Shown: positions 27,189-56,431 of the stretch, piece after piece
Layout of the letters: every line of letters begins with the position of its first letter
Numbering within the stretch: the stretch's first letter is position 1
Origin: an uncultured Candidatus Saccharibacteria bacterium
GTDB lineage: Bacteria; Patescibacteriota; Minisyncoccia; Phycocordibacterales; PALSA-1337
Assembly (NCBI GenBank): GCA_964412585.1
Contig: CAYPPJ010000002.1
Span: 9,631-73,630 of the forward strand
Direction: 5' to 3'
DNA: 64,000 bases
Made by a program: the position numbers and the translations under genes
The notes under the pieces: model-generated
Database searches by the model: none
What the model was told of the DNA's origin: nothing
Seen by the model: only the letters and a program-made list of their open reading frames with translations

Positions 27189-27306
27189 TGTAAAGCTTTC
27201 TTGAACACAGGGAACCCCCTGCATCCTTCGAGTTGGATTATATCATATATAGGTAAAAAGTCAATACATGGCTCAAATACGTCAAATATCGTGTATAATA
27301 TTCGCA

Positions 27307-38476: not shown

Positions 38477-38571
38477 GATAGGTGTAAATAGGTAGAGTAA
38501 GTATATACCTGTTTATAAATTTGCAAACTTGTGGAGAGTAAAAAAATATGTTGATAAGGTGGGGATAGGGA

Positions 38572-38680
38572 GAACAAGGGGCGGAACAGGTACTTTTTCA
38601 GCTACAATAAAAGATGCGGTATGCGAATTGAGTGGTAGCTACTATTTCCGCTTCAAAAGTACCTGTTCCGCCCCTTGTTC
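38572..38680. repeat. Family-1 palindromic element, copy B (in the dnaA-rpmH divergent region)
   Basis: Arms gaacaaggggcggaacaggtactttttcagc / gcttcaaaagtacctgttccgccccttgttc (26 bp perfect plus imperfect tip). Loop 38603..38649 tacaataaaagatgcggtatgcgaattgagtggtagctactatttcc. Confidence 0.85.
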
Positions 38681-38735
38681 GTGCAAAGCACTATTACTTG
38701 ATAAGAACACACAAATATGTAATAGTGTGTGAACT

Positions 38736-38870
38736 ATGTCATTCACATACAAACCAAAAAAGCGTAAGCGAGCAAAGTCCCACGGATTTCGTGTGCGCAT
38801 GAAGACGACAGGAGGACGCAATGTTCTTGCGCGTCGTCGAGCAAAAGGTCGTAAACGAGTCGCGGTGTAG
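38736..38870 (+). CDS. rpmH: 50S ribosomal protein L34
   Basis: [44 protein letters not shown], 44 aa; below the ORF-track length cutoff but unmistakable; followed by rnpA. Confidence 0.93.
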
Positions 38871-38882
38871 TCGTTTTCTCGT

Positions 38883-39218
38883 ATGCTTCCACGTTCGCTG
38901 CGGATTTCCGCCGAACAACTTGATCAGATTATGGACAAAGGGAGAGTTTTTCACTCTTCCCTTTTTGTCTTGAGGGTGTTGTCGCACCAAAAAGACACAC
39001 GAATTTCGGCAGTTTCCCCGAAGAAAATAACAAAGACAGCTACCTCAAGGAATGCACTTCGTAGAAAAATCTACTCGGCGGTTAGGAAAGTGGGGACATT
39101 GTTTATTGTTCCTGCGCACCTAGCATTATTTTCGAAGCAAGGAGCAGAAAGGGTAAGTCAGGCAGAAATGGTGGCAGACATACGCGCACTCTTTGTGAAA
39201 GCCGGCCTTTTGCGCTAG
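38883..39218 (+). CDS. rnpA: ribonuclease P protein component
   Basis: 111 aa basic protein, FVLRVL...SAVSPKK...RNALRRKIY pattern, rpmH-rnpA-yidC synteny. Confidence 0.85.
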   Translation: MLPRSLRISAEQLDQIMDKGRVFHSSLFVLRVLSHQKDTRISAVSPKKITKTATSRNALRRKIYSAVRKVGTLFIVPAHLALFSKQGAERVSQAEMVADIRALFVKAGLLR

Positions 39219-39255
39219 TATTACGTAGTTATCTTTTCGTCCTACATCTACCATC

Positions 39256-40008
39256 ATGTATCACACAATTATCTTCCTCCCTCTCTATAACGGGCTTGTC
39301 GCTATTATGAATATTCTGCCGTGGGCTGATATTGGTGTGGCCGTGATCATATTTACAGCCATTGTAAAGCTTGTGCTGTTTCCTCTTTCAAAATCTTCAC
39401 TTTTGACTCAGGTCAAAATGAAGGAGATTGAACCTGAGGCAAACAAGATTCGTGCCCAGTATGCAAGCGACAAGCAAGCCCAGACACTCAAAGTCATGGA
39501 GCTCTACAAGACAAGAGGGGTAAAACCATTTTCAGGTGTCCTACTCCTCCTCATTCAGCTACCCATACTCCTTGCGCTTATCTCAGTTTTTTACAAAATT
39601 ATTCCCTCGATTCACCCAGAGTTCCTCTATAGTTTCATATCAATGCCAGATATAAGCACTAAGATACATTTTCTAGGCATCATTGACCTTGCACAGAAGA
39701 GTTTTATTTTGTCACTTATTACAGCGATTGTTCAATATTTCCAGCTCCACTACTCGATTGCGACTCGCGCCCCAGCAACTGACGCAGTAGTAGATACTTC
39801 GGCGGCTGGTTCAATGGCTATGACAGCCAACTCAATGACAAAGAATATGAAGTTTTTCCTCCCTATTCTTGCGTTTGCATCAACATACTGGCTTATCCCA
39901 GCACAATTTCCTCAAGCCGCCTCGATTATCGCCATCTATTGGACGATCAGTACCCTCTTTACCTTAGGTCAGGAGCTTTATATTAGGAAGAAGTACGTAA
40001 GTAAATAG
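39256..40008 (+). CDS. yidC: membrane protein insertase YidC (short Gram-positive/CPR type)
   Basis: KMKEIEPEANKIRAQYASDKQAQTLKVMELYKTRGVKPFSG...LLIQLPILLAL - YidC/Oxa1 core. Confidence 0.9.
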   Translation: MYHTIIFLPLYNGLVAIMNILPWADIGVAVIIFTAIVKLVLFPLSKSSLLTQVKMKEIEPEANKIRAQYASDKQAQTLKVMELYKTRGVKPFSGVLLLLIQLPILLALISVFYKIIPSIHPEFLYSFISMPDISTKIHFLGIIDLAQKSFILSLITAIVQYFQLHYSIATRAPATDAVVDTSAAGSMAMTANSMTKNMKFFLPILAFASTYWLIPAQFPQAASIIAIYWTISTLFTLGQELYIRKKYVSK

Positions 40009-40114
40009 CACCGCAGGGGAGCACACATCCTCGCTGCTCCAATAAACGATGCGGTATGCAAATTATGTGGTAGCTACTATTTACGCAGCGAGGATGTGTG
40101 CTCCCCTGCGGTGC
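40008..40114. repeat. Family-1 palindromic element, copy C (between yidC stop and end of the T4SS-like operon)
   Basis: Perfect 30-bp arms gcaccgcaggggagcacacatcctcgctgc / gcagcgaggatgtgtgctcccctgcggtgc. Loop 40038..40084 tccaataaacgatgcggtatgcaaattatgtggtagctactatttac. Confidence 0.85.
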
Positions 40115-40122
40115 GGACTCTA

Positions 40123-41442
40123 TTACTTTGCAGTGAGATCAAGAGACCAAAGAGAGAGGTCGTTCTTGTTCATGAATATTAGAAAACGATCCTTTTCATC
40201 AAGGCCAAGATTGAATGCGTCGATGATTCGGTCAGACGTGTCAACAATTGAGGATATTAGATGAACTTCCCCTGTCGTTGCACTAACCTGCCATATTTTA
40301 TCGACGAACGAAACGGTGCCTTTGTACCAATCATCTGGATAGGTCGCCGCGACTGGTTGGGCGGGAACGGCACAATAGATCATGTCTTTATAGAAGTTAC
40401 CCCAGACGCATTTGTCGGCAAGTGTGCGAATGACCGCGTCAGTTCCTTTCTTTTTATCAACATCAAATATACTTGAAACGATATTGTCCGCGCTTCCCGC
40501 CGCAGAAAGGAAGACCTTTTTCGCATCAACACTTACTTTTGTGCTCAAGCCAGGCAATGGACCAAGAATTTTCTTCCATACGCCTGTTTTTGCATTGACG
40601 AAGTAGAGAAAACCACGTTCGTCTGCCGCGCCCTTTGTTGTGAGAGCGATAGTGTTTTCTTCAGGCCACTCAGCATTTACTTGGGTCACTGGGGTGCTAA
40701 AGAGTGGTAGTGGGGCTGAACCGTCAAATTTGAGTATGTATCCCGCGCCAGCACCCTTTTCATTGATTAACACAAATACACGATCTTTTTTAGGGGATAC
40801 CGCAAAAGTCAGAATATTTTCTGGTAGGTTTTTTCCTTTGAGCTCATAAGGGGTCAGTGCAGAATCGGTTACTGATGTAGTTGTTGATACTTTTGGCATA
40901 ACTCGAGCCCGGAGCTCTGCCCAGATTCCTCCAACATTATTTTTTTCGGTTATACCAAAGGCCAAGAAAGACGAGAGGTTTTTGTTCCACACACTTTCAT
41001 ACATTTTAGGAACAACCGTATTCGAAATAGTTTTGATATCAAGAGTATTTCCGCGTGCCTCATAGACATTACCACGTCCCCTATCGATCCAACGGATAGC
41101 TGTTGTGGTGCTCGCAGCTTTTGCATTGACTGGACCTGTCGTACTTGCCCCATATCCCGCTACTGGCGTATTACTCAAAAGACGAAGGGTTGGAATTTTG
41201 AGCTGTGTACCAGAAGCTGTTGAACCGGTGCCATTTGTGCCTACACGAGGAGTACTTGTGCTCGTGCCTGACGATTGTGTTGGTGTACGACCAAATGGGG
41301 TGAAGCCATTTTGTTGTGTGTTTGATGGTTCGCCAAAGTCTGTTGTACCGATTCCCCGCACAAAGAAGTACCAGTATGCGCCACCAGCGATGATGAGTAG
41401 AATAATGAGGCCTATGATGTATTTTAGGGATTTTGAGGTCAT
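40123..41442 (-). CDS. membrane-anchored protein with S/T-rich linker and beta-propeller-like domain (last gene of T4SS-like operon)
   Basis: N-terminal TM IIGLIILLIIAGGAYWYFFV, then TPTQSSGTSTSTP... low complexity, then ~330-aa globular domain. Confidence 0.55.
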   Translation of the reverse strand: MTSKSLKYIIGLIILLIIAGGAYWYFFVRGIGTTDFGEPSNTQQNGFTPFGRTPTQSSGTSTSTPRVGTNGTGSTASGTQLKIPTLRLLSNTPVAGYGASTTGPVNAKAASTTTAIRWIDRGRGNVYEARGNTLDIKTISNTVVPKMYESVWNKNLSSFLAFGITEKNNVGGIWAELRARVMPKVSTTTSVTDSALTPYELKGKNLPENILTFAVSPKKDRVFVLINEKGAGAGYILKFDGSAPLPLFSTPVTQVNAEWPEENTIALTTKGAADERGFLYFVNAKTGVWKKILGPLPGLSTKVSVDAKKVFLSAAGSADNIVSSIFDVDKKKGTDAVIRTLADKCVWGNFYKDMIYCAVPAQPVAATYPDDWYKGTVSFVDKIWQVSATTGEVHLISSIVDTSDRIIDAFNLGLDEKDRFLIFMNKNDLSLWSLDLTAK

Positions 41443-42902
41443 GGTGTTCCGCCGAGGCCCGTTATAAGAGCACTGGTTTGTTTATCAAATAATTGCCTGA
41501 CTGAAGGGTCACTTATTGTTGGCAAAGCTGCAGTTCTCATTCTCTTTACATCAGCAATTGTTGTCTGGGCAGCCTCCTTGTAAAGTGTTAGTTCGCCCGC
41601 TTTCACGCCCGCATTTACAAATTGTGCTGCAGTGAAGCCGGCCGCACCGCCGAGTACACCCCCTGCCGATGTTCCTGCGATGGTGAAAAGGGTTGTGACA
41701 CTTGATTGGAAGGTATCCACCATAGCTTTTACCGATGGACTCTTTGACATACCGTACAGTATAGTGGAGTTTATCTTGGTTATAGCCTCCGCATATTTTT
41801 GATAATCAAGGACTTGTCCCGAAGCGACATCATTTCCAGATTTCTTCAACATTTCACTGTATTTTGTGCTCTCGTCAGCTATTTCTTTAAGGCACGTTGC
41901 TTGATCGTAATTATTTCCATAGTTCCACCACAAAAAACTACTTGATTCAGTGGTTATACCATAGCATTTTTGGATTATTGCGTTCATTATACCAACTCCC
42001 TGTTTAGTGGTGATTGATGCAGTCAGATCTTTTTGCTGGTTATTAATATCGGCAATACGTGCTGCAAGTGCCCGAGAAGCTGGGTCAAGTATAGATGACT
42101 GATCTATAAGTGATTGACATACGTTGGTTGTTCCCGCGGGGACAATTCGATCGTCGATACTATCCATACCGTTTGGATCCGGAACGAATGAATTGACTGA
42201 ATCAATCAATTGTTTACATAAGTCAGCTTTTTGTTGGTCGAGTTCGTCGGATTTTTTCTTTGCCTCAGCAACGGATTTTATAAGATCCATATTATCGCTT
42301 CGGAACTTGCTTGCATCGCGGTTTAGTTGGTCAAATATACCGCTCAATGCCTGAGGTTCATATTTTATATCAAGTGGTTTTACCAACGTCGTTGGTATAT
42401 CAACGAGCCTCGGGTCAACTGTTTTCAGAATAAGATATGAACACAGCACAAGTAATAGGCCGAGCAACGCATTTTGTATTTTTTTAATACCATCAGTTTT
42501 TTGATTATACGCATCGGAGCTCATATACTCGAAACCGCCCCAGACAATCATAAATACCGCCGCAACAGCGCAGAGTGCAATAAGAAGGTTGAATGCATAC
42601 TGTACATAATCTTTAAATTTGACTGAAGTGATTTGTGTCCCTGTTTGGCAATCTACGGCCGGTGTGGTGATTTTTCCGGTAGCATCCTTGACGGCCGGGC
42701 TTGGAACGCATGGCAATGGTTCTAGAAGCGTATAACTAGATTCAGTGTTACAGACGGGGTTGTTTTTTGCATTTGCCGCACTACAATCTGGCCCCGTGGT
42801 TTGTGCCGAAGTGATTGATGTTGAACCAAGTAAAATAACTGCCATTAAGGCTATAAGAGGGATGTTGCAAACTATTTTTCTAAGTATGGAGTATGTATTC
42901 AT
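41439..42902 (-). CDS. secreted/membrane protein with Cys-rich N-terminal region, two central TM helices and C-terminal coiled-coil (T4SS-like operon)
   Basis: Signal peptide, PDCSAANAKNNPVCNTE..., TM pair VQYAFNLLIALCAVAAVFMIVWGGF / IQNALLGLLLVLCSYLIL; 4-nt overlap with downstream gene. Confidence 0.55.
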   Translation of the reverse strand: MNTYSILRKIVCNIPLIALMAVILLGSTSITSAQTTGPDCSAANAKNNPVCNTESSYTLLEPLPCVPSPAVKDATGKITTPAVDCQTGTQITSVKFKDYVQYAFNLLIALCAVAAVFMIVWGGFEYMSSDAYNQKTDGIKKIQNALLGLLLVLCSYLILKTVDPRLVDIPTTLVKPLDIKYEPQALSGIFDQLNRDASKFRSDNMDLIKSVAEAKKKSDELDQQKADLCKQLIDSVNSFVPDPNGMDSIDDRIVPAGTTNVCQSLIDQSSILDPASRALAARIADINNQQKDLTASITTKQGVGIMNAIIQKCYGITTESSSFLWWNYGNNYDQATCLKEIADESTKYSEMLKKSGNDVASGQVLDYQKYAEAITKINSTILYGMSKSPSVKAMVDTFQSSVTTLFTIAGTSAGGVLGGAAGFTAAQFVNAGVKAGELTLYKEAAQTTIADVKRMRTAALPTISDPSVRQLFDKQTSALITGLGGTP

Positions 42903-42908
42903 AGGTAA

Positions 42909-43931
42909 TTAAAAATTCAACCCCTCCCCTTGTGTTGGTGTTCTATTAAATTGCACCGAAAAAGTGGCGTCTGTACCTTGAAGTATTTTCTCAATATTAC
43001 GAATACTCACTTGGACATTTGATGATCCTGTAGAGTCGTCTGGTGCACGTAACACAACTGACTCTTTGTTCGTCAAGCTTGACCTTCCTGAATTGTTAAG
43101 ACCCCACGACCAATCAAGATCACCAGTTCCCACGCGAGGCTTATTGAACCCAAAAGGAACGGCGAGGACACTCGTCTCTTTGTTTGAACCAATGCGCAAA
43201 GTTGAACCTATCGATCTGTTAAAGAGGGTTCCATATAAAGGATCCTCTATATAAAATTGTATCTCAGGACCTCGGGTTATTACTTGAGTATAGGCGCTTG
43301 CGGATGAATCATTATCTTTTGGCCACACAGTTACTGAAATATCATATGGTCGAGGCACTACATCACCCACAAGCACAATAGATTGTTTATTATATCCAGA
43401 CTGGTCTTCAAGGGCTCTCCCGTTCTTTTTCCATTGGTACACTAGTGCAGAAGGACTGTATTCGATACCAGCTGAATTGGCAATGTGAGGTACCGCAATG
43501 ATGGTTACTGAATTTTGATATACAGCTGGAATCTTCCCTTTAAAAAATGGAGGAGTATAGCCATCAGTTTCTAATAGCAGATCGACTGACCCAGAACCAA
43601 TAATGATTGAAGATTTAACAATTACCCCATCAACATTGGTGGCCGTTACTTCAATTGATATTTTCTTTCCTAAAGCAGGAGCCACAACGTCAAACGATGT
43701 CATTCCCGCACCTGACTTCGAAAGCTTTCCATCGACATACCAGGATACTTTGGAAGAATTAATATCTATTGTATAGCTCCGAGCGGTGACGGTGATAGTT
43801 TGTCCCGGAGAAGGGTTGTTACTGGATGGTGATAATTCTAGTCCACCAATGGAAGTTGGCACTTGAGCATGTGCAACAGCCGAAAACATAAAAGCGCACA
43901 GTAGAATTACCCCAAAGAAACGAGATTTCAT
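42909..43931 (-). CDS. secreted Ig-like/beta-repeat protein (T4SS-like operon)
   Basis: Start placed at MKSRFFGVILLCAFMFSAVAHAQ (signal peptide); the longer ORF to 44024 would overlap the upstream gene. Confidence 0.5.
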   Translation of the reverse strand: MKSRFFGVILLCAFMFSAVAHAQVPTSIGGLELSPSSNNPSPGQTITVTARSYTIDINSSKVSWYVDGKLSKSGAGMTSFDVVAPALGKKISIEVTATNVDGVIVKSSIIIGSGSVDLLLETDGYTPPFFKGKIPAVYQNSVTIIAVPHIANSAGIEYSPSALVYQWKKNGRALEDQSGYNKQSIVLVGDVVPRPYDISVTVWPKDNDSSASAYTQVITRGPEIQFYIEDPLYGTLFNRSIGSTLRIGSNKETSVLAVPFGFNKPRVGTGDLDWSWGLNNSGRSSLTNKESVVLRAPDDSTGSSNVQVSIRNIEKILQGTDATFSVQFNRTPTQGEGLNF

Positions 43932-43986
43932 TAGCTTTATTTTACCACGCCCTTTCAATACAGTCTGCAGTAATTTCGGGGATAAT

Positions 43987-44421
43987 TTATTTCGGTAACG
44001 AGCCGTTTGGTGGTCTGAAATCACCCTGGTGAATAGGGTTTTTCGGTGGAGCGTGTCTCATCCCCTCAACGTTCATTTTTGGGCCCATTTTTCCTTTAGT
44101 TAGTACATTGGCTGAAATCCCCGTTTTATCCTCAAGTCGCGTTGTGCCTACTATGATGAGCATTGCGACAAAAATGGTAGGCAATTCCTGCACACCTGGA
44201 ATAAGCTCCGCTATTGTGGAGATAATTTTTGTAACTCCCTGTTTTCCGCTGACAATTCCCATACCCTGTCTCCAAAAGTACACACTCGCAAGGACCCAAA
44301 ATATAGGACCGACAAAGTCGCCGACAAGAGGGATTAAGGTGAATAGGTCAGCAACAAGGGCCGCAACAACCAAAATGGCCCCTGCGGCGTTAGTAATTCG
44401 GTTCTTTTTGGATGTATCCAC
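43987..44421 (-). CDS. small polytopic membrane protein (T4SS-like operon)
   Basis: 3-4 TM helices (ILVVAALVADLFTLIPLVGDFVGPIFWVLASVYFW...). Confidence 0.5.
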   Translation of the reverse strand: MDTSKKNRITNAAGAILVVAALVADLFTLIPLVGDFVGPIFWVLASVYFWRQGMGIVSGKQGVTKIISTIAELIPGVQELPTIFVAMLIIVGTTRLEDKTGISANVLTKGKMGPKMNVEGMRHAPPKNPIHQGDFRPPNGSLPK

Positions 44422-44458
44422 GGTTCAATTATAACAAACTAACCTTTGGATTGTGACA

Positions 44459-46273
44459 CTACCCGGCCTGCTCCAGTTGCCTCTTTGCATCCTTGATAGC
44501 CAACACCTGAGCTGGATTTGTAGTAATAATCTGATCTTCTGTATATGATCCAACCACTTTAATAGCGACGTGTTTGAGCCCTACGAAGAAAATGCCCTCC
44601 CCCACATCAGACTCGAGGAGTAGGTATTTTTCCTCATCCGTGAGGTTGAATGTTTTTTGGATATGATCTATGACTGTTGGCGATTGTTTCAAAAGGATCT
44701 GGATGGATGAGTTTGTCACAATAGGCAATCCATACGGTGAATTCAAGAAGTCATCCACGTCTTGGGTGATGGTAGCAAGACCAAGGAAATATTTACGTCC
44801 GCGCTTTGCCAAACCAAAGAGGAAGGATGCGGTATCTTCGGATTTCATCATCCACCACGCCTCATCAATGACAAGGAGACGGCGCTTGAGATTTTTACGA
44901 ATAGCATTCCATATATAGTGTGTGACGATATACATTGCAACCGGCTTGAGCTCATCTTCCATGTCGCGGAGCGAAAATACCACGAACTTCTTGTTAATAT
45001 CGACATTCGAAGGTCTATTTATGAAGCCGGCCCACGTACCTTTTGTATACTTACTGAGGCGCTGTACGAGTGAGTCACCACCCTCCATGCCTGCGAGGAC
45101 GAGCTCAAAGTCTGAGAGTAATGGCGGTTCTACAGTACGAAAATCTGCCTCAGGCGTGATATCTTTGAGGGCATAGGTCTCACTGATCGCTCGGTCGATG
45201 ATCGCGTCCTCTTCTTGGGTGAGTCCGCCTAACATGATACGGAAGAGGCCGACCAGGTTGATGATGTTTGAACGCAACACATCGGCTGCAGATTCATCTT
45301 CACGAGGTATTGGTAGGTCAAATGGGTTGATATGATGTTCTGAGTTCAAGGAAATATTAAAGTACTTCCCTCCAGTTGCTTCGGCCATATACTCGTATTC
45401 TTTTTCTGGGTCGATAACTATGACATCTGTATCGAACATCAGGGTACGGAGAATTTCGAGCTTGGTTGCGTATGATTTACCAGCGCCGGCCGTTGCGAAG
45501 GTGACAGAGTTGTAATTTTCTAGGGAAAATCGATCAAAGAGCACCAATGAAGAGTTGTGGCGGTTGATACCGTATAGAATGCCTTTGTCTGAGGTGAGGT
45601 CAAATGAGACAAATGGAAAGAGTGACGATAGTGGCGATGAATTGAGCTTCGAGTGTACTGTCAATTGGTCATCTGCAATCGGAATAACTGATTTGAAGCC
45701 TTGTTCTTGCTGGAATAGGGCAGGTTTGACATACACTAGCTTTGATTCGAGGATAGATTTGATCTCGGACTCAAGCTTGTCGAGCTCACCTTCAGAGTCG
45801 GCGAAAAGTGTAATGTAGACACCCACATCAAATAGGTGTTCCTGTGCCTGCATGAGCTGATCACGGAGCTGCTCGAGATCTTGGTATGCAGTATCCAATG
45901 CCGGATCACGCACCAATCCCTTCTCTTCCCTACGCAAAATCTGGCTCTGAACTTCAGCAACCTTCTTTTGGAAATGGCGGAGAATCTTTGCCGTATCAAC
46001 CGGATGGATGAATATTGAGATATTAAAAATCTTATCGAGGTTAATGATCGGTGCAAACCAGCTTTCGTCCAAGAAACGTGGATATGAAATGACAAAAAGC
46101 GTACGGCCTACCTTTTCACCAAGATTGAGGTCTTTTGGGCTTATTTTGAGTGCGGATGGAGAAATGACATCTTTGAGCTCCAACACCCCAGCCTGATAGA
46201 TTTCCTCGGGCAGGATGGAGACGATAGGTGATGAGTCGTCTTTCTTTCCAAATAAATTACCAAAAAATGACAT
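44459..46273 (-). CDS. VirB4/TrbE/CagE-family T4SS ATPase, main (ATPase) part
   Basis: Walker A TFATAGAGKSYATK, Walker B LLVIDEAWWMM, AAA_10/CagE_TrbE_VirB architecture; 604 aa. Confidence 0.85.
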   Translation of the reverse strand: MSFFGNLFGKKDDSSPIVSILPEEIYQAGVLELKDVISPSALKISPKDLNLGEKVGRTLFVISYPRFLDESWFAPIINLDKIFNISIFIHPVDTAKILRHFQKKVAEVQSQILRREEKGLVRDPALDTAYQDLEQLRDQLMQAQEHLFDVGVYITLFADSEGELDKLESEIKSILESKLVYVKPALFQQEQGFKSVIPIADDQLTVHSKLNSSPLSSLFPFVSFDLTSDKGILYGINRHNSSLVLFDRFSLENYNSVTFATAGAGKSYATKLEILRTLMFDTDVIVIDPEKEYEYMAEATGGKYFNISLNSEHHINPFDLPIPREDESAADVLRSNIINLVGLFRIMLGGLTQEEDAIIDRAISETYALKDITPEADFRTVEPPLLSDFELVLAGMEGGDSLVQRLSKYTKGTWAGFINRPSNVDINKKFVVFSLRDMEDELKPVAMYIVTHYIWNAIRKNLKRRLLVIDEAWWMMKSEDTASFLFGLAKRGRKYFLGLATITQDVDDFLNSPYGLPIVTNSSIQILLKQSPTVIDHIQKTFNLTDEEKYLLLESDVGEGIFFVGLKHVAIKVVGSYTEDQIITTNPAQVLAIKDAKRQLEQAG

Positions 46274-46277
46274 ACGT

Positions 46278-46922
46278 TTAGGTTATCTGTATAGGCTTCT
46301 CTGTTTCTCCTGGGTTGAAGAGTTTGTAGAACAATTCTACCACCTCTTCTGTCCCAAGTTCTGCGGCTCGAATACCACAGCGTACCAGCCCCTGTTCGAC
46401 CACAGCGACACGTTGTTCAAGTTGGCTGCGGTATTCCTGAAATTTTGCATCAGCACTTGCCGTCTGTTCTTTTGCCGTGCCCTTGCTGGGAAATATATTC
46501 GAAATCGGATTTTTGCTTGCGGTCATGAGTGGTGGGTCATAGGGTATGACGACAAAGAAGCTCTTTGACATGATGTTGGTGTTTTCAACAAAGGTTTTGA
46601 TGAACTCTATATATTCACGTACCTGGATTTTCATGAGTTCCGTAGCCTGTTCTTTGTAGCGGTCTTCGAGGAGAGCGATGTAGGGTCTAATATCCAGCTT
46701 TTTTGATTGAACGAATATCTGGATAGAAAAATCGAGCGAATTAACGAAGTTCTGGAACTGCATCAGAATAGAACTTTGCTCATCTTGGGATTTCAAGGCA
46801 AAGTTGAGAGATGATACCAAGACGATTGCGCGCATACCGCCATTCTTGAGGATAATGACACCGTCGCGTATCTCCTGTATCGGAATAAAATCTTGGGTTG
46901 TTTTTGATGATACGGCAGCCAT
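46278..46922 (-). CDS. VirB4-family N-terminal domain encoded as a separate ORF
   Basis: IPIQEIRDGVIILKNGGMRAIVLVSSLNFALKSQDEQSSI... matches the first ~200 aa of VirB4/TrbE proteins; stops 4 nt before the ATG of the 604-aa ORF (taa-acgt-atg). Confidence 0.6.
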   Translation of the reverse strand: MAAVSSKTTQDFIPIQEIRDGVIILKNGGMRAIVLVSSLNFALKSQDEQSSILMQFQNFVNSLDFSIQIFVQSKKLDIRPYIALLEDRYKEQATELMKIQVREYIEFIKTFVENTNIMSKSFFVVIPYDPPLMTASKNPISNIFPSKGTAKEQTASADAKFQEYRSQLEQRVAVVEQGLVRCGIRAAELGTEEVVELFYKLFNPGETEKPIQIT

Positions 46923-47356
46923 TATCGTTGATTTTTATTTGAATACATACTTTCTTTGATATCCAGGCTCCAGCTTAGGTCTTTCAATTTGCTGTCAGAA
47001 ATTTTCGGAACCATGATAGAGGCATAGTTTTTAACATCTGTAGCCTCCGCCTCGGTCGTTTGAGGCGTTGTTCTATCCGCCTTTCTCCATATATAGAGCT
47101 TACTGCCGAGATAGTATTTAAATGCAGCTTCGACAACAGTTATAAAAGGTTTGTTATTTATCTTATAGAAAGCGAGTGCGCCTGATATGGCCATAATCAA
47201 GATGATCGGTACAATGGCCAGGGTTACGTTTCCAAGAAATACATAGACTACGAAAGACAGTCCTCCCCCACCAGCCAAGTAGATAAACTGCTTGAGCGTG
47301 AGTGGCCCGAAGATCTTATCCTCGACTTCTATAAATTGGGGAACTTGAAATCGCAT
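46922..47356 (-). CDS. PrgI/VirB3-like small 2-TM T4SS protein
   Basis: MRFQVPQFIEVEDKIFGPLTLKQFIYL + two TM helices; sits directly upstream of VirB4 as in Gram-positive T4SS loci. Confidence 0.55.
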   Translation of the reverse strand: MRFQVPQFIEVEDKIFGPLTLKQFIYLAGGGGLSFVVYVFLGNVTLAIVPIILIMAISGALAFYKINNKPFITVVEAAFKYYLGSKLYIWRKADRTTPQTTEAEATDVKNYASIMVPKISDSKLKDLSWSLDIKESMYSNKNQR

Positions 47357-47395
47357 TGCTCATATTATAGCGTCAAGCGAGGATATGGGAAAGCG

Positions 47396-48088
47396 TTATT
47401 TAATAGGCTCTCGGTATGGATCAGGTCCTCCAGATGATTTTGGTGTAGGAACCGTGATTTTTGGCTTTTGAACCGCAGTCGGCGTTGCCACTACATTTTG
47501 CATAGACTGCCCTGCGGGTTTACTGAGTAGGAGGTCTACAAGTGGCTCTGTATGGCTTTCCTCCTTTTTGGTAGATTTGGCCGCACTAGTCTCACTAAAT
47601 GGACCCGCTTCCTCCTCTCCTACAGGTAAGTTTTGTGGTGGTTGACTGGTGTGAGCTGTGCTTGAGGGTGGATTTTCAAGTCCGGCAAGGATGTTTCCCC
47701 TGTCAGCAGGAGTGACCATCTTGTTTTCTGATTCTGGTTCAGGTTTTTCAATGGTGATGCCACCCATACGCTCTAGATTTTCGCTTGTCTCTGGAGCCGG
47801 GCTGGTTTGTTTTTGCAAATTTGTTTTTAGTACACTAAATACATTTGAGTTAATTTCCACCACAACTTTATCCGCGAGTTCCTGGTCGATAGAGAGTCGG
47901 GTCATTATGTGTCTAGTAAAGTCTGCAGAGGTACTGACACCTTTCAACACATCGCATACTTCAGCATACAGTTCTCCCATTTGGTCGATATTCAACCCTA
48001 ACTTTTTTGAGGTAATTTCCAGGGTATCATAAAACTGCGGTGATGATATGTAGCTTTTTATTTGTTCCAATTGGTTATTTTTGTCCAT
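47396..48088 (-). CDS. hypothetical cytoplasmic protein with P/S/E-rich C-terminus (T4SS-like operon)
   Basis: No TM; ORF in operon context only. Confidence 0.45.
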   Translation of the reverse strand: MDKNNQLEQIKSYISSPQFYDTLEITSKKLGLNIDQMGELYAEVCDVLKGVSTSADFTRHIMTRLSIDQELADKVVVEINSNVFSVLKTNLQKQTSPAPETSENLERMGGITIEKPEPESENKMVTPADRGNILAGLENPPSSTAHTSQPPQNLPVGEEEAGPFSETSAAKSTKKEESHTEPLVDLLLSKPAGQSMQNVVATPTAVQKPKITVPTPKSSGGPDPYREPIK

Positions 48089-48099
48089 AATTGTTCATG

Positions 48100-50139
48100 C
48101 TAATTCCACCAGTGGTGATTTTCAGGCTTATTCATAAATGACAATGCCTTATGAGTTGAACCTCCGCTATGTCTTGTATGGTTTGTGTCCCAAAAGGCAA
48201 TCGCCTCGCCTATCGCTTTCTTTTTAGTATTATCAATACCCTCGTCGTTCATTTCTTTGAGTTGTGAAGGCTTCAAGAAGGCAATAACTGCTGGGCGTAC
48301 CACATCATCAAGACCCATCAGTTCTTTACCACTCATACCGTTTACGATTGCCTCGACAGTTTTCGAGCCACCAACACCTACCGGGTTCTTCTCCACCGCT
48401 TCGTGCAAGGCCTCCTCTCTCGTCTTGGAGAGTGTGCGTTTGTCGTCATCACTCATGTTACCCATCATAAACTTAAGCGTCTCGACATCGTCATTTTTTG
48501 CAGCGGTGACCAGTGCCGCCTTACGTGCGTCAACAATCTCTGCCTGATCATCGGCTGAAATATCATCAGATTTCGCAATCGCCTCAAAGTCTGATTTTTT
48601 GAGATGTTTAACAATATTTGGATCTTTCAAAACTTTTGAACCTAGTGCAAGACGTTCCTTCTCGTTCATCTTACTCATAGCATCTTTGTATTCTTGTGAT
48701 GTAGTACTCTTGGACGACATCAGGCTCTGTAAATGAGAGCCACGGTCAAGTTCGCGTTGCTTCTTTGTTACTTCTTTTTGAGTCTTTGCTATATCTTCGT
48801 ATGACCTGTCACTACCAAATTTAGCTTTCGCAGCTGCTCCTGTTGTTACTGCCCTCAAGTCACGACCAAACAGGCTGTTGCCAAATCGACTTTTGTCCAG
48901 TTTTTTATCCAAATAATTACCCGCATACCCAATCGTTCCTCTACCCGCTATACCCCCCGTCCACCCACCAACTTTTTTCCAAATGGCATCTGCTCCGACC
49001 TTATCTGCCCACTTTGGCATCATTGCCCCCATACTCATTGCACCTAATAGAGGTAGATTGAGCATAACGATCACGAGGACTGCGTTCACGGCAAGAATCA
49101 TGAGATCACTCAAGAAATTCCCACTTGGGCTGAGTGATCCAACGTATCCATCTTTGAATATTGATGTAGAGGTGAGTACTGAGAGCGCAAAATACATCAA
49201 GAGCAAATACACTGGCATGAATATGAGCTGTTCTTTGAGGTATTTTCTCCACAAACCTGCATATTGATCAATTTCTGGCACAACATAGGACGCAAAGAAA
49301 ATAGGTGAAAACGCCAGCAAGAATATCAAAATAACAAAACGAACAATAAAGGCCAGTGACGCCAAGAATAAGCTCAGTGCCGTAGTGACCATGATAATAA
49401 TAGAGGTGATGCCAGTGAGGATAATCTTGAGTGAGGTGCTCACAAAGCCATTTCCAGACTGTATTACTTTCTGGCCATTTGCACTCAAAGTGCCATCAGG
49501 GTTGTATAAACGGGTCACACCAAGAGATTGCATGAATATGGTCGAAATGCCCCCGTCGGCATTGCTTGTGTTTATAAATTTCTTCATATCCAACGATCCG
49601 TCCAGTGTTTGTTGAGGTGCGATTGCGCTATACAATTGCAAGGAGACGATATTGGACACATCGATTGCCAATCCAGTCAGGAAAAAACTGAAGTTGATGA
49701 GAATGCCTGCAACGACAATATTCTTGATGCGATCGCCAAACTTTGGGCTCTCAAATCCGGTGATGAGCTGTATCGCAGAGTATAAGAGTCCGAAAATAAT
49801 GAACATACCTGAGATATCTCTGATCGCCTTCCATACGGTATAAATAGCATCAGTTGATGCTACGAACTCCTTGATATGCATTGTCAGATTGATCGAGAAG
49901 TTCATGAGCGAACCAGCCAGATAGACGAGCCAGCTTGCCATGGTCTGGAAAGAGTAGAAGAGGTTAGCCAAACTATCGGCAATAAGTGTTGTCAGATTGA
50001 AACTGAACATATTTCCCTCTGCATGGGCGATCGGAGTCAGTGCGATTGTTACGGCCAACACACATACAACGACAAACCCAGCACGTGTGAAGTGTCGAGA
50101 GGTTAAAATATGTATTGATCTAATAATGCGTGACAACAT
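48100..50139 (-). CDS. VirB6/TrbL-like polytopic membrane protein with C-terminal coiled-coil/hydrophilic domain
   Basis: Signal/TM at N-terminus, ~7 further TM helices over the first 400 aa, then 280-aa charged domain; size and topology match VirB6/TrbL/PrgH-type channel proteins. Confidence 0.6.
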   Translation of the reverse strand: MLSRIIRSIHILTSRHFTRAGFVVVCVLAVTIALTPIAHAEGNMFSFNLTTLIADSLANLFYSFQTMASWLVYLAGSLMNFSINLTMHIKEFVASTDAIYTVWKAIRDISGMFIIFGLLYSAIQLITGFESPKFGDRIKNIVVAGILINFSFFLTGLAIDVSNIVSLQLYSAIAPQQTLDGSLDMKKFINTSNADGGISTIFMQSLGVTRLYNPDGTLSANGQKVIQSGNGFVSTSLKIILTGITSIIIMVTTALSLFLASLAFIVRFVILIFLLAFSPIFFASYVVPEIDQYAGLWRKYLKEQLIFMPVYLLLMYFALSVLTSTSIFKDGYVGSLSPSGNFLSDLMILAVNAVLVIVMLNLPLLGAMSMGAMMPKWADKVGADAIWKKVGGWTGGIAGRGTIGYAGNYLDKKLDKSRFGNSLFGRDLRAVTTGAAAKAKFGSDRSYEDIAKTQKEVTKKQRELDRGSHLQSLMSSKSTTSQEYKDAMSKMNEKERLALGSKVLKDPNIVKHLKKSDFEAIAKSDDISADDQAEIVDARKAALVTAAKNDDVETLKFMMGNMSDDDKRTLSKTREEALHEAVEKNPVGVGGSKTVEAIVNGMSGKELMGLDDVVRPAVIAFLKPSQLKEMNDEGIDNTKKKAIGEAIAFWDTNHTRHSGGSTHKALSFMNKPENHHWWN

Positions 50140-50145
50140 GTGTTT

Positions 50146-51951
50146 TTAGTGGAAACCAACAAGTAGTGGATTGACAAATGTGTGGTATGGGAAACCGCCG
50201 AATGTCAGATTATATGGCAACTCGTTACAAATCCTTTGGAATGTTCCAGCGTCCTTGTCGAGAATGGTCATAAGTGAATCGACACTCTTTTTGCTCTGCG
50301 TTGCATCTTCTGAGCCGTCGACACCTGCCTGTGCACCCTGGAGGGTTGAACTAATTGAAGCATCAACACGATTGAAACCAGCGCTTATATCATTGTCAGT
50401 TACACCTCGAATCTGAGCATTGGTTGATGAGTTGGTTGTGTTTTTGTAACTATCAATTTTATTTTGTAGCACCATCTTCTTTTCAGTGGTGGAGGATATC
50501 ATCAAGTCAATGCTTTGTGCCAAAACCAAGTCGACACCGCCAATCATCCTCTGTCCGTATTCACGTTGTGATGTGGGGAAATTTGCTGTTGAAATTTTTG
50601 TACTAAAGCATGCTCGGATAGAGACGTATTTTGTTCTTTCGGTACTGAGCAAGCTCAACGTTTGGTCATATTGGTTTATAGTATCTTGACCAAGATTAAT
50701 CACTGAATTTGAGCCACTGAGGGATCTGTTTTTGGTCGATTGAATATCGAAACTGTTTTGGTTGTACGATTCATCACTAAGCTGAGTGAGATAGGCCTTG
50801 GAGTTTCCACCAAGTCCTGATCCGTGACCACTGAGTGCCGCCAGTCCTTGAGTAAACATTTGATTGACGAGCGCGCCGGTAATAGCGTCGATGCTATCGC
50901 TTATTGTTTTAACAAGGACAAGCTTGTCAGATGGAATGTTGAGTTGTTTTTGGAGCGATCCAGCAATCATTGATCCTGGGGTTTGAACAGAACAATCCTG
51001 ATAAGTGGTCTTACCATTTTTTGTTGTTTTCTTGATGCCCGTTGCCTTGCCAAAGTCATCAAACCCAGATGAACCAAATCCATTTTTCTCAAGATCTCTG
51101 ATATCAGATGCATTTAGACCATACTGTGAACCTGCTATCTCGACAGTGCTACGTCCATCGGCGGGTACATCATATCCCCCACCCGAAGGATCAATAGTAA
51201 ATTGATTGGTGACATCTGTACATTTATTCCATGACAAGAAGCCGGCACCACGATTCAAATCATTGTTAACGGACGCTTTTCTCTCGGCTATCTTTTGTTT
51301 CAAATCTGAATCAGCAAGAAGATATGCTCCGACTGGATTGTTTTGGGCTTGCGTAGTGTATGCAAGAAATCCTCCCCAGCCTCCCTGCGAAAAGTCGCCA
51401 TTCATGAAATTTCCCAGCGTTGCTCCGTCGGCCGAGCCTGTCAATGTAATCCCGCTATTACGCCCAATATTCTGCACTGAGTTTCGTGTATTATTTATGA
51501 CGGTACTCAACGTACACGAGTACCGTTTGTTCATTGATGAAGCTTGGTTGAGCGCTATGTTTAGACGCAAATCAAAACTAAATGGCGAACATAACTGTGA
51601 CAGTGCACCAGTTTTCTCGAGGAGCTCCCCGGTAATTTGATCACCAACATCCATGAAAAAGCCCTCTGGGTTTGTGATAAATGCCGGACTCCCTTCAAAC
51701 CCCGTATTAATCCAATTGACCACGCTTGCGGTCATGCGCTGGATAAGCTGGTTGGCGATCATCACGGCGAGCTTGTTTCCAACGAACTCTTTCCAGTTAT
51801 CCATGATGCAGTACACGTCGAATAGTCCGCAGGCGGTCGGTACCGGTAGTGCTTGCGCTTTCTTTGCTGGAATTGCAGCAAATGGCGAGGCGATAACACA
51901 GAGCATGAGTATTCCGATCAACAATTTTTTTATGTACGAATTCGTTTTCAT
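50146..51951 (-). CDS. secreted 601-aa G/S/N/T-rich protein (T4SS-like operon)
   Basis: Signal peptide LLIGILMLCVIASPFAAIPA; no recognisable catalytic motif. Confidence 0.5.
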   Translation of the reverse strand: MKTNSYIKKLLIGILMLCVIASPFAAIPAKKAQALPVPTACGLFDVYCIMDNWKEFVGNKLAVMIANQLIQRMTASVVNWINTGFEGSPAFITNPEGFFMDVGDQITGELLEKTGALSQLCSPFSFDLRLNIALNQASSMNKRYSCTLSTVINNTRNSVQNIGRNSGITLTGSADGATLGNFMNGDFSQGGWGGFLAYTTQAQNNPVGAYLLADSDLKQKIAERKASVNNDLNRGAGFLSWNKCTDVTNQFTIDPSGGGYDVPADGRSTVEIAGSQYGLNASDIRDLEKNGFGSSGFDDFGKATGIKKTTKNGKTTYQDCSVQTPGSMIAGSLQKQLNIPSDKLVLVKTISDSIDAITGALVNQMFTQGLAALSGHGSGLGGNSKAYLTQLSDESYNQNSFDIQSTKNRSLSGSNSVINLGQDTINQYDQTLSLLSTERTKYVSIRACFSTKISTANFPTSQREYGQRMIGGVDLVLAQSIDLMISSTTEKKMVLQNKIDSYKNTTNSSTNAQIRGVTDNDISAGFNRVDASISSTLQGAQAGVDGSEDATQSKKSVDSLMTILDKDAGTFQRICNELPYNLTFGGFPYHTFVNPLLVGFH

Positions 51952-51952
51952 A

Positions 51953-52831
51953 TTATTTAATCATGCTAAAAATAATTGCGGGCTCGGCACTGGAAAATTG
52001 TAGGTTATGCTGGGCAAAAACAAACTTGAGATCCAAAAGCCCATCACGAAGCTGGCCTAAAGATTTTTCATAGGTTGCGAGAGCGGCGATGCTCTGGATC
52101 GGGTCCGTGAAAACTTTTGTCATACCGTGTGAACCAAAAGCAATCGCACTTACACCGTTGACCAAATTTACATGGAACGTCGCAAGGGACTGCGGAGCGG
52201 GCACACTGAGGATACCGGTCAAAATGGCATCATACGAACTAGCAATTGATTCTACTGTTTTGATTTGAGATGGATCTTCATCTTCCAGTGCCTGTAGTGC
52301 AACGGTGGCAGCATCTGATGTTGGCATGTGAGCAGAAAAGATGGTACCGATTGCATTTGCGTACACTCGTTCTAAGCCACTGTCTTGCGATGTTGATATA
52401 TTTATTTCACGAATGTCATACACGCGCGCTTGTGGCGCAGCGTCGACGAGGTTGTTTGTCGTCTGATCAACAAGCGCCTTGATCGCTTGTGGGTCCTCGC
52501 TCAAATTATTTTGTTTGAGATACATATATTGCTCAAAAAACTTTTTGCCGAATTGGCCTGTGAGAGTATCTGGTTCCGATGGCACGGTTTTTTCGGCTGT
52601 ACCGGATGTTTTGATCGTAGTACTTCCTGTTAAAAATTGTTTTTTCCAATCCACAGACGAAGAAATGGTCCCCTGTTCAGTGGATGAAGAAACAACTGCA
52701 TCAACTTGTTTTATTTGATCAGTTTTTTCGCTCACTGATGTGCCGAATGCTGCATATCCGGCGGCTGCGACTGCCAGGATGCACACAACCAGTATCACCA
52801 ACGTCTGAACATGCTGTCGGGGTAGGGACAT
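51953..52831 (-). CDS. bitopic membrane protein, first gene of T4SS-like operon (VirB8-like topology)
   Basis: N-terminal TM VQTLVILVVCILAVAAAGYAAF then ~260-aa extracytoplasmic domain; assignment by topology/position only. Confidence 0.4.
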   Translation of the reverse strand: MSLPRQHVQTLVILVVCILAVAAAGYAAFGTSVSEKTDQIKQVDAVVSSSTEQGTISSSVDWKKQFLTGSTTIKTSGTAEKTVPSEPDTLTGQFGKKFFEQYMYLKQNNLSEDPQAIKALVDQTTNNLVDAAPQARVYDIREINISTSQDSGLERVYANAIGTIFSAHMPTSDAATVALQALEDEDPSQIKTVESIASSYDAILTGILSVPAPQSLATFHVNLVNGVSAIAFGSHGMTKVFTDPIQSIAALATYEKSLGQLRDGLLDLKFVFAQHNLQFSSAEPAIIFSMIK

Positions 52832-52917
52832 ACGACATAATTATATAGTAATACGGCCTTATTTGCTGGATTTTCTGTGGACAATAGATCACGATAGATT
52901 CGTGGTACAATTGTTAT

Positions 52918-53250
52918 ATGAAAAAACACGTTATCGTTCTGGCTTTAGCCGTAATTTTATTGCTTGTTCCGGCACTAATGACGCGCGCCGCAGTCCCACT
53001 TCCTTTCGGGGGATTGGTGACGGCAGTTACCCCGTGCGATGAGGGTCTTCTAACTTATGTGCTTACACCGCTTACTGGGGTGATTCCGTTAATGTGGCTT
53101 TGGGGTGAATTGCCATTTCTCATGTATATTCCTCCTCATCCGGGGCAAGAGTTGCTCGGTTGGACCGCCACTGTTCCGATTCCATGTACCATATCAGGCA
53201 TTCCATACAATGGTGGTCTCCCTATCCTCATGCACGGATCTAGTATTTAG
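52918..53250 (+). CDS. small secreted protein with two hydrophobic segments (candidate VirB2-like pilin), divergent from T4SS-like operon
   Basis: 110 aa; signal peptide MKKHVIVLALAVILLLVPALMTRAAVP, then GLLTYVLTPLTGVIPLMWLWGELPFLMYIPP. Confidence 0.4.
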   Translation: MKKHVIVLALAVILLLVPALMTRAAVPLPFGGLVTAVTPCDEGLLTYVLTPLTGVIPLMWLWGELPFLMYIPPHPGQELLGWTATVPIPCTISGIPYNGGLPILMHGSSI

Positions 53251-54036
53251 CTATATTTTGAGCCATTCTTCGACTTTTAGGTCCTCAGCACGGACGTTTT
53301 TGTCGAATCCTGCCTTTTCCCAAATAGCCCCAATTTCTTCCTTTGAGAGGACATCTTCTAAATTTCTGGCCAAAAGTTTCCTTTTGTGAGCAAACCCCGC
53401 TTTAACAATGCTGAAAAAGCGCTTAACATCAAGGTTTTTTGAGGTAAATGCGATATTTGATATATGTTCAATCGATAAAATTGCTGAATCTACCGTCGGT
53501 GGAGGTGTAAACGCTCCCGGAGGAACTTTGGCTATAATATGAGGCGTGCCAAAGGCTTTTACCGAAATTGAAAGAATACTTTCCTTGCCATCTCGTGCAC
53601 AGATTCGCTCAGCAACCTCTTTTTGCACCAGTAATACCATACGAGTCGGCCGTGGCCCGTGTTCAAGAAATTTTTCCAATATGGCACCGGTGATGTAGTA
53701 CGGAATGTTGGCGACGAGTGCGAATGATCCATCCAAAATAGATTCCGTTGATAAGGTGTGTTCGTACAATACATCCCCAGAAATAATTTTTAATGCACCA
53801 TTTTTGATTTCAATGAAAAAATCCTGCTCGAGCATAGCAATGGCGCGTTGATCTTTTTCAACAGCGATGACATGTGCACCCGCGCTCAATAATGCGCGAG
53901 TTAATACTCCAGTACCGGGTCCAATCTCAAGTACTGTCTCCCCTTTTTGTATGTGTGACGCAGAAATAATCTGCTCAAGCACATGTGTTGAGTTCAAGAA
54001 ATGTTGCCCCAGTGATTTTTTCGCAGTTAATTTCAT
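53251..54036 (-). CDS. rsmA: 16S rRNA (adenine1518/1519-N6)-dimethyltransferase RsmA/KsgA
   Basis: KKSLGQHFLNSTHVLEQII ... VLEIGPGTGVLTRALL ... NIPYYIT motifs. Confidence 0.93.
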   Translation of the reverse strand: MKLTAKKSLGQHFLNSTHVLEQIISASHIQKGETVLEIGPGTGVLTRALLSAGAHVIAVEKDQRAIAMLEQDFFIEIKNGALKIISGDVLYEHTLSTESILDGSFALVANIPYYITGAILEKFLEHGPRPTRMVLLVQKEVAERICARDGKESILSISVKAFGTPHIIAKVPPGAFTPPPTVDSAILSIEHISNIAFTSKNLDVKRFFSIVKAGFAHKRKLLARNLEDVLSKEEIGAIWEKAGFDKNVRAEDLKVEEWLKI

Positions 54037-54065
54037 CGTGGTGTGTGATTCCTAGCTTAGCACAA

Positions 54066-54167
54066 GTGAGTTGAGTATGGGTGAAGATACATTGCGGAGC
54101 GCGACGGCGCGAGCATAGCAATTTTTCAGCAGAAAAATATGCGCGTATCTGAACCCATGCTCGACGA
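54066..54167. repeat. Family-2 palindromic element, copy 2 (between pcrA end and rsmA start)
   Basis: Imperfect 18-24-bp arms gagtatgggtgaagatac / gtatctgaacccatgctc around core attgcggagcgcgacggcgcgagcatagcaatttttcagcagaaaaatatgcgc. Confidence 0.8.
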
Positions 54168-54180
54168 ACGATGTGCGTCC

Positions 54181-56178: not shown

Positions 56179-56431
56179 GAATTTTTTTGAATGCGTCCGC
56201 TTTTTCTACAGATTTTAGGTCAGTATTTCACACTATTAATTGACATAACTGCAATATTTGTGACTGTGTACAGTGTTCATTGACAATAGTTTGGCACCTG
56301 ATACCCTGAATAGGTACCCGCAATGGTATGCGTTTAAATATGGCTTAGCAGAGCCATTTATGCTTTATACCATCGGGCACCGATTATCTGCAAAACCATC
56401 GCGAAAGACTTGCCAGAAAACGAAAAATAGT

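Follow-up and report, generated by a model that had tools for sequence, protein, structure and literature searches.

The stretch of DNA analysed here, 64,000 nucleotides (64 kb) of contig CAYPPJ010000002.1 to which we refer as the window, carries eleven minus-strand open reading frames (ORFs) that span positions 40123-52831 in its ORF map and that quite probably represent the core, vertically inherited and origin-proximal type IV secretion system (T4SS) of a Paceibacteria (Parcubacteria) cell, a non-conjugative system of the Patescibacteria clade derived from MPF-FATA. We labelled these ORFs A to K in operon order, and P110 the divergent ORF of 110 amino acids (aa) found upstream of them. The spacing between neighbouring operon genes ranges from -4 to 39 nucleotides, with one apparent exception: H and I overlap by 38 nucleotides when I is taken from its first GTG start. 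The Joint Genome Institute (JGI) calls gene I in two versions, of 371 and 340 aa, the latter from an internal ATG, and the same gene set is present in independent JGI calls on contigs with an identical VirB4 protein. An earlier note on this DNA had described a tight minus-strand operon, which agrees with our map, under a title that announced ten genes, which does not; eleven were mapped, and the list in that note also held eleven. The genes on one side of the operon are dnaN, dnaA, rnpA and yidC, as identified with Pfam, with rpmH also called beside rnpA, and those on the other side are ksgA and the genes for an UvrD/PcrA helicase, an M23/LysM peptidase, a ComM-like ATPase and PNPase. The GC content of the operon is that of the rest of the window.

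Gene G (44459-46273; 604 aa) encodes the body of a VirB4 ATPase. It matches the NCBIfam model of the CD1110-family VirB4 (1.5e-110, 370.7 bits, cut-off 325), along model positions 185-732 only, as well as the Pfam family P-loop_TraG (1.7e-26), and it carries a Walker A (AGAGKS) and a Walker B (LLVIDEAW) motif. It is the only T4SS ATPase in the window. To collect its relatives, one genome per GTDB species was scanned, which gave 585 confirmed relatives, and the best 80 of them define the loci L001 to L080 used throughout this work. G is 78-96% identical to the VirB4 of these 80 species representatives and 28-37% identical to the nearest plasmid VirB4s, which are CD1110-family proteins of Firmicutes and Actinobacteria. 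On the basis of these similarities, we assign G to the MPF-FATA lineage of VirB4, with other Patescibacteria VirB4s as its closest relatives.

The gene upstream of G, F (46278-46922; 214 aa), is TrsD-like and corresponds to the N-terminal domain of VirB4. It matches five VirB4 models over their first ~120-170 positions, as well as the TrsD/TraD family of NCBIfam, in all cases below the curated cut-offs (Mbov_0397, 3.6e-12; TrsD, 2e-6; CD1110, positions 1-116; TIGR00929, positions 4-170), and a precomputed Pfam match to the TraC-like family PF26593 is on record. From these alignments, F appears to supply the N-terminal part of VirB4 that G is without. The earlier note had proposed a split VirB4, and the complementary coverage of the models by the two ORFs bears this out. 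F and G are separate genes in 80 of the 80 loci, with stop codons, frames and spacers that vary, and in five loci an unrelated ORF of ~125-140 aa lies between them (L039:9619-9990, L058:1560-1934, L068:4351-4752, L071:2999-3382 and L080:2592-3020). The inserted ORF may resemble the four-helix-bundle "23S rRNA intervening-sequence protein" family. The conservation of the split in all loci, the differing stops, frames and spacers and the five inserted genes rule out a frameshift or sequencing artefact. The split is not a peculiarity of the genome in the window; it is the conserved arrangement of TrsD plus VirB4.

The third member of this group, E (46922-47356; 144 aa, two transmembrane (TM) segments), adjoins the VirB4 genes, as in other T4SSs of the Patescibacteria clade. 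Its assignment as PrgI/VirB3-like, already suggested in the earlier note, is supported by a match to Pfam PrgI of 48.1 bits (1.7e-12, profile positions 6-87 of 91) against a cut-off of 27, and it was found in 80 of the 80 loci with identities of 50-86%. In a hydropathy scan, E has two hydrophobic segments, C six or seven and H three; A, B, I, K and P110 have one N-terminal segment each, J has a signal peptide and two TM segments, and D, F and G have none. The topologies that had been given for these proteins agree with the scan.

Gene C (48100-50139; 679 aa) encodes a polytopic membrane protein that, on structural comparison, is best described as a VirB6-fold channel protein whose C-terminal domain consists of alpha-helical repeats, that is, a putative "extended VirB6". 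The resemblance is to VirB6/TrwI of the R388 stalk (PDB 7o3v and 8rtd) and to DotA of the Dot/Icm system (9ngy), at 10-15% sequence identity and with Foldseek E-values that are not significant; unlike these proteins, C has an addition of ~250 aa made up by the helical repeats. Since a K/R-rich stretch follows the last TM segment, this C-terminal domain is probably cytoplasmic. Of the former VirB6/TrbL-like annotation, the VirB6-like polytopic part holds, while no match to Pfam TrbL was obtained for C. No significant match among PDB sequences was obtained with ortholog profiles of C, B, K, A or I. An apparent fusion of B and C in L009 was discarded, as a stop codon separates the two genes.

The pilin of the system is J (41439-42902; 487 aa). 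Its match to Pfam T4SS_pilin (PF18895; 7.2e-5, 23.2 bits) is below the cut-off of 26.6, the same family is matched by 54 of 55 J orthologs (best 4.7e-10), and J is the only ORF of the window that matches a hidden Markov model (HMM) of the pilin domain built from J orthologs (1.3e-42). J and its orthologs have in common a signal peptide, a YxLLxPLP motif and a pair of hydrophobic helices, which in J lie at ~residues 100-160. At the level of the family, J can be regarded from its sequence as a VirB2-like T4SS pilin. Beyond the pilin core, J has a Cys-containing extracytoplasmic extension of ~320 aa whose length varies between species: the ortholog ORFs range from 106 aa, essentially a bare pilin core, to 948 aa, with the core conserved. 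If J has the topology of VirB2, its extension would be exposed on the exterior of the pilus.

The earlier note had placed the pilin elsewhere, in P110 (52918-53250, plus strand; 110 aa), and had listed J as a Cys-rich protein with two TM segments. P110, a gene in the JGI calls that lies between A and ksgA, is a small, Pro/Gly-rich protein with a signal-like N-terminus, predicted to be secreted. It was rejected as the pilin: it has no match in Pfam or to the pilin-domain HMM, and it is patchily distributed, being present at the same position in only two of the 80 loci. These two relatives, which are not adjacent to each other, have it at the same divergent site upstream of the operon (L012:3109-3426 and L040:3022-3351), with 45-48% identity. 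P110 is probably neither a core part of the T4SS nor a VirB2-type pilin.

The comparison across species indicates how the locus has been inherited. The 80 loci all come from metagenome-assembled genomes of Patescibacteria, labelled Paceibacterota, Parcubacteria, Taylorbacteria, Zambryskibacteria or, for third-party annotation (TPA) assemblies, Saccharibacteria. In 79 of them, the detectable genes, housekeeping flanks included, are collinear with the window, so that the arrangement of the operon is not due to chance. The sole non-collinear locus is L052 (3635-8387), where I is found between B and C and not downstream of virB4. In the 32 loci that hold all flanking genes, the median identities are 83% for VirB4, 65% for the TrsD-like protein, 59% for PrgI, 59% for DnaA, 54% for UvrD and 52% for DnaN, compared with 28-37% for A to D and I to K. 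VirB4 is more conserved than DnaA (37130-38476) in 32 of these 32 loci. The closest genome, L001, shows the same trend, with identities of 96% for VirB4 and 90% for DnaA but of 31-40% for A to D. As judged from these identities, the extracytoplasmic and channel module evolves far faster than the motor.

These data bear directly on the possibility that the operon is what remains of an integrated conjugative element, or is carried by one, with the relaxase and type IV coupling protein (T4CP) of that element beyond the window. What favours this explanation is the membership of VirB4 in the CD1110/MPF-FATA conjugation family and the fact that its nearest plasmid kin, in Firmicutes and Actinobacteria, are conjugative. 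Pfam scans of all large ORFs revealed no relaxase, T4CP or VirB11 domain in any sizeable ORF of the 64 kb, and no integrase either, which upholds the earlier statement that the window is without relaxase, VirD4 and VirB11; the marks of a conjugative MPF-FATA system, namely relaxase, T4CP and mobile-element context, are absent from it. The operon occupies the same site, in the same order, between dnaA-rnpA-yidC and ksgA-uvrD in 79 of the 80 species, its VirB4 is more conserved than DnaA, its GC content is uniform with that of its surroundings, the identity to plasmid VirB4s is just 28-37%, and relaxases are rare in Patescibacteria (PMC12102498). We consider a conjugative remnant highly improbable and close to refuted; the housekeeping flanks, the conserved synteny and the lack of relaxase and T4CP in the window support the view, also expressed in the earlier note, that this is not a conjugative element.

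Only one T2SSE-family ATPase is encoded in the window (27268-28977, plus strand; 569 aa). It was considered as a candidate VirB11 and ruled out by its length and its MshEN domain, which identify it as a PilB-type ATPase, and it therefore belongs to a type IV pilus. A gene for a PilM-like protein is located at 2825-3808 on the minus strand. From these two type IV pilus genes it follows that the cell has both a type IV pilus and a T4SS.

Regarding the surroundings of the operon, rnpA-yidC lie on one strand and the operon, ksgA and uvrD on the other, the latter three being transcribed towards dnaA (window positions 38000-56200), and there is a sign change in GC skew near 38 kb. Should oriC be located beside dnaA, the ~13-kb operon would run head-on to replication; a search for DnaA boxes (TTATCCACA with at most one mismatch) gave matches that are not enriched and form no cluster. 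In a scan for promoters and terminators, sites were no more frequent than in shuffled sequences, and an Rfam search returned only tRNAs. The M23 peptidase, with two LysM domains, is encoded at 56273-57526 on the plus strand, ~3.4 kb upstream of the operon and on the other strand; M23/LysM-containing VirB1 candidates are associated with virB4 in Paceibacteria (PMC12102498). Between the genes of the ComM-like ATPase and PNPase there is an ORF of 607 aa (59529-61352, minus strand) with no Pfam match at E<=0.1. A giant ORF of 2416 aa (8057-15307, minus strand) contains a GH9 glycosyl hydrolase domain (1.9e-43), fn3, a CelD_N Ig-like domain and a purple-acid-phosphatase N-domain, and its product may be a surface protein that degrades or binds polysaccharides.

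Systems of this kind have already been described for Patescibacteria between 2023 and 2025, and the earlier note was right to say that such loci are reported in this group (PMC12102498, PMC10633639). Our finding is the recognition of a known system, given the accounts of Quinonero-Coronel et al. 2025 and Wang et al. 2023, and the example in the window is correct but largely known. In a survey of 3,035 Patescibacteria genomes, Quinonero-Coronel et al. reported that the VirB4 proteins of these organisms form a monophyletic clade nested in MPF-FATA, that TrsD, PrgI/VirB3, VirB6 and VirB2-like PF18895 genes are widespread near virB4, and that the virB4 neighbourhood in Paceibacteria includes dnaA, dnaN, rnpA, ksgA and rpmH (PMC12102498). 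Relaxases were found in 103 of the 3,035 genomes, with 15 of 109 relaxase genes near virB4, and T4CP-like genes are mostly distant from virB4 (PMC12102498). Using transposon sequencing, Wang et al. showed the T4SS cluster and its pilins to be indispensable for a Saccharibacterium to grow epibiotically, and the T4SS of this organism has no recognised coupling or relaxase proteins (PMC10633639). A review of 2025 refers to these systems as newcomers in the T4SS superfamily (PMC12857230).

The locus in the window shares with the T4SS of the Patescibacteria clade (PMC12102498), including the Saccharibacteria cluster SEML1_0006-0019 (PMC10633639), a VirB4 of MPF-FATA ancestry, an adjacent TrsD-like gene, PrgI/VirB3, a VirB6-like protein and a PF18895 pilin, together with a locus free of relaxase and T4CP and, as in Paceibacteria, a chromosomal site at dnaA/dnaN/rnpA/ksgA. 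There are also differences. In the window there is one pilin gene, whose product carries a long and variable extension at its C-terminus, whereas Saccharimonadia and Microgenomatia have arrays of 2-11 short pilins; peptidase and lysozyme genes that are found directly downstream of virB4 in S. epibionticum have no counterpart there in this operon; and six accessory genes conserved in Paceibacteria (A, B, D, H, I and K) fall outside the assigned T4SS families.

The relationship with Gram-positive MPF-FATA systems (CD1110/CTn2, Prg of pCF10, Trs of pGO1/pSK41) is seen in the PrgI gene directly upstream of VirB4, in the CD1110-family VirB4 (28-37% identity) and in a monoderm architecture without VirB7, VirB9, VirB10 or VirB11; the pGO1 subclass also has a separate TrsD-like N-domain (PMC12102498). 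Gram-positive systems are without VirB2 pilins (PMC12102498, PMC12857230), in contrast to the locus in the window, which has one. The Clostridium perfringens plasmid NZ_CP143494.1 encodes MobC, a relaxase, the VirD4-like CD1115, PrgI, an unsplit VirB4 of 783 aa and a soluble lytic transglycosylase (SLT) hydrolase; of these partners, only PrgI and VirB4, the latter split, are shared by the window operon. The coupling protein of that plasmid is encoded ~1.9 kb upstream of virB4, and none is present in the window. Two systems outside this lineage, ComB of Helicobacter pylori and Ced of Sulfolobales (the latter cited in PMC12102498), resemble the window in having a VirB4-family protein as sole ATPase at the locus, no relaxase or T4CP, and a polytopic VirB6/CedA-like protein with small TM proteins, accompanied in ComB by a pilin. 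The locus in the window belongs to neither family, and the resemblance is architectural only (VirB4-only): with the CedB model, 32.6 bits are reached where the cut-off is 700, equivalents of ComB7-10 are absent, and the operon contains no DNA-processing gene.

The six accessory proteins, A, B, D, H, I and K, gave no significant family or PDB-sequence match in Pfam, NCBIfam and PDB-profile searches, in line with the statement of the earlier note that the accessory components have no recognisable homology. A (51953-52831; 292 aa), the first gene of the operon, encodes a bitopic protein with a hydrophobic segment at residues 11-29 and an extracytoplasmic domain; it was detected at the same position in 40 of the 80 loci, and 11 of these 40 orthologs contain bacterial TSP3 Ca-binding repeats. 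B (50146-51951; 601 aa), immediately upstream of C, encodes a Cys-rich secreted protein whose N-terminal domain is conserved and whose C-terminal part is a long three-helix bundle, and some of its orthologs have discoidin or Ig-like domains. When B was compared with VirB5/DUF4141, a few of its orthologs matched DUF4141 weakly; this is a Bacteroides conjugative-transposon family listed beside traJ (PMC10434189). The adhesin-type domains in orthologs of A and B fit a surface exposure of these proteins and prove nothing more. D (47396-48088; 230 aa) is a soluble, presumably cytoplasmic and fast-evolving protein, detected in 31 of the 80 loci (23-46% identity), with no hydrophobic segment and with a C-terminal half rich in P/S/T/E. 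H (43987-44421; 144 aa) is a small polytopic membrane protein (2-4 TM segments), and a small multi-TM ORF with shared motifs occupies its position in most of the related loci where G and I are separated by a gap.

I (42909-44024; 371 or 340 aa), secreted or anchored, was detected in 76 of the 80 loci and contains three repeats of a W-x-x-NG-type motif, with W95, W198 and W307 invariant. Its matches are weak (Hoc Ig-like, 0.0027, with the PDB profile; Ig_3 and BiPBP_C, each in 7 of 59 orthologs), and its repeats are probably Ig-like beta-sandwich domains. K (40123-41442; 439 aa), the last gene of the operon, encodes an N-terminally anchored protein with a TM segment at residues 9-27, a low-complexity linker and a C-terminal domain of ~300 aa. 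It was detected in 60 of the 80 loci, with C345, C357 and several Trp conserved (the two Cys invariant); a TolB propeller match with an E-value of 0.022 and DPPIV_N matches in 2 of 50 orthologs suggest that the domain is possibly a beta-propeller. The earlier labels "Ig-like" for I and "beta-propeller" for K find an echo in these sub-threshold signals, although no match is significant. A, I and K are bitopic, as would be expected of a VirB8-like subunit (PrgL/TcpC/TraM), and gave no sequence match.

The subunit identities, the absence of conjugation genes from the window and the core-genome behaviour of the locus are what we observe here; the working of the machine can be proposed from homologous systems. 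The TrsD-like F and the VirB4 body G would form a single motor ATPase at the cytoplasmic face, docked on the PrgI/VirB3-like E and the VirB6-fold channel C. VirB4 would pull the Sec-inserted pilin J from the membrane to build a pilus or tube on the VirB6 platform, while A, B, I, K and the extension of J may constitute or decorate the distal parts and those that span the cell wall, and may touch the host cell. Among VirB4-only systems, those that are well studied, ComB of H. pylori and the archaeal Ced, are importers. Because there is no T4CP or relaxase at the locus and these VirB4-only systems import, we lean towards the uptake of host macromolecules, and a conduit for acquiring them would be favoured, by analogy, over export from the cytoplasm to a target. 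Uptake of host macromolecules has also been voiced as a hypothesis (PMC12102498), and a preprint of 2026 describes tubular structures at the parasite-host interface, possibly T4SS pili, together with the acquisition of host RNA (10.64898/2026.06.21.733656). As a tentative proposal, the T4SS could be a VirB4-only import machine that lets a Paceibacterium, auxotrophic for nucleotides, take up nucleic acids or other macromolecules of its host, through a VirB2-type tube set on a VirB6-fold platform and tipped or covered by fast-evolving, host-specific surface proteins, namely A, B, I, K and the variable extension fused to the pilin. If this is true, the hypervariable module of A to D and J would set the host range, and the motor would be frozen by selection, evolving more slowly than DnaA.

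The large helical-repeat C-terminus of C, probably cytoplasmic, could also be a docking platform, and this leads to another possible, though doubtful, explanation, in which the machine exports effectors, so that epibiont proteins reach the interior or the surface of the host and manipulate or permeabilise it. Substrates could be recruited by a distant coupling protein, by the helical-repeat domain of C, or extracytoplasmically as in Ptl. Protein export has been proposed as an option (PMC10633639), T4CP-like genes occur elsewhere in most Patescibacteria genomes (PMC12102498), and exporters without a T4CP exist, such as Ptl and Brucella VirB (PMC12102498, PMC12857230). However, the t4cp homologue of S. 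epibionticum is non-essential while its T4SS genes are essential (PMC12102498). No T4CP, VirB11 or candidate effector or chaperone genes are present in or beside the operon. It also counts against export that the known exporters without a T4CP retain VirB11.

The rapid evolution of the surface proteins, the lectin-, Ig- and TSP3-type domains in orthologs of A and B and the variable extracytoplasmic extension of J would suit yet another role, that of an organelle for adhesion only, in which a VirB2-like pilus and fast-evolving surface proteins attach to the host and no macromolecule passes. We regard this role as unlikely: the type IV pilus, the organelle implicated in adhesion in Saccharibacteria (PMC10633639), also has genes in the window, and an active translocon is suggested by the VirB6-fold channel combined with VirB4, PrgI and TrsD proteins that are extremely conserved.

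Several points weigh against our interpretation of the locus as a core T4SS of the Patescibacteria clade and against the function that we favour for it. The pilin J of the window scores under the Pfam gathering threshold, and an extension of 320 aa on each subunit does not easily fit the helical pilus of a canonical VirB2, unless it is cleaved or the structure is short. In the family searches, no VirB8-like or VirB1-like subunit was recognised in the operon. The 80 loci were picked as the best VirB4 matches, so that the identity of VirB4 is slightly inflated relative to that of the neighbouring genes. A T4CP may be encoded outside the 64-kb window, as VirD4-like genes are present in most Patescibacteria genomes and are rarely near virB4 (PMC12102498). 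Finally, neither the substrate nor the direction of transport can be read from the sequence.

The example in the window does not add a new kind of system. It is a clean case from Paceibacteria with structure-level support for the VirB6-like subunit, and it provides a pilin fused to a long variable extension and six syntenic accessory proteins as targets for structural and genetic work, as well as a frozen motor that contrasts strikingly with the hypervariable exterior. A large part of bacterial diversity consists of Patescibacteria, which are obligate epibionts, and their T4SS, essential in the single lineage where this was tested, ranks with the most conserved of their machines. Identifying its cargo would explain how these cells feed.

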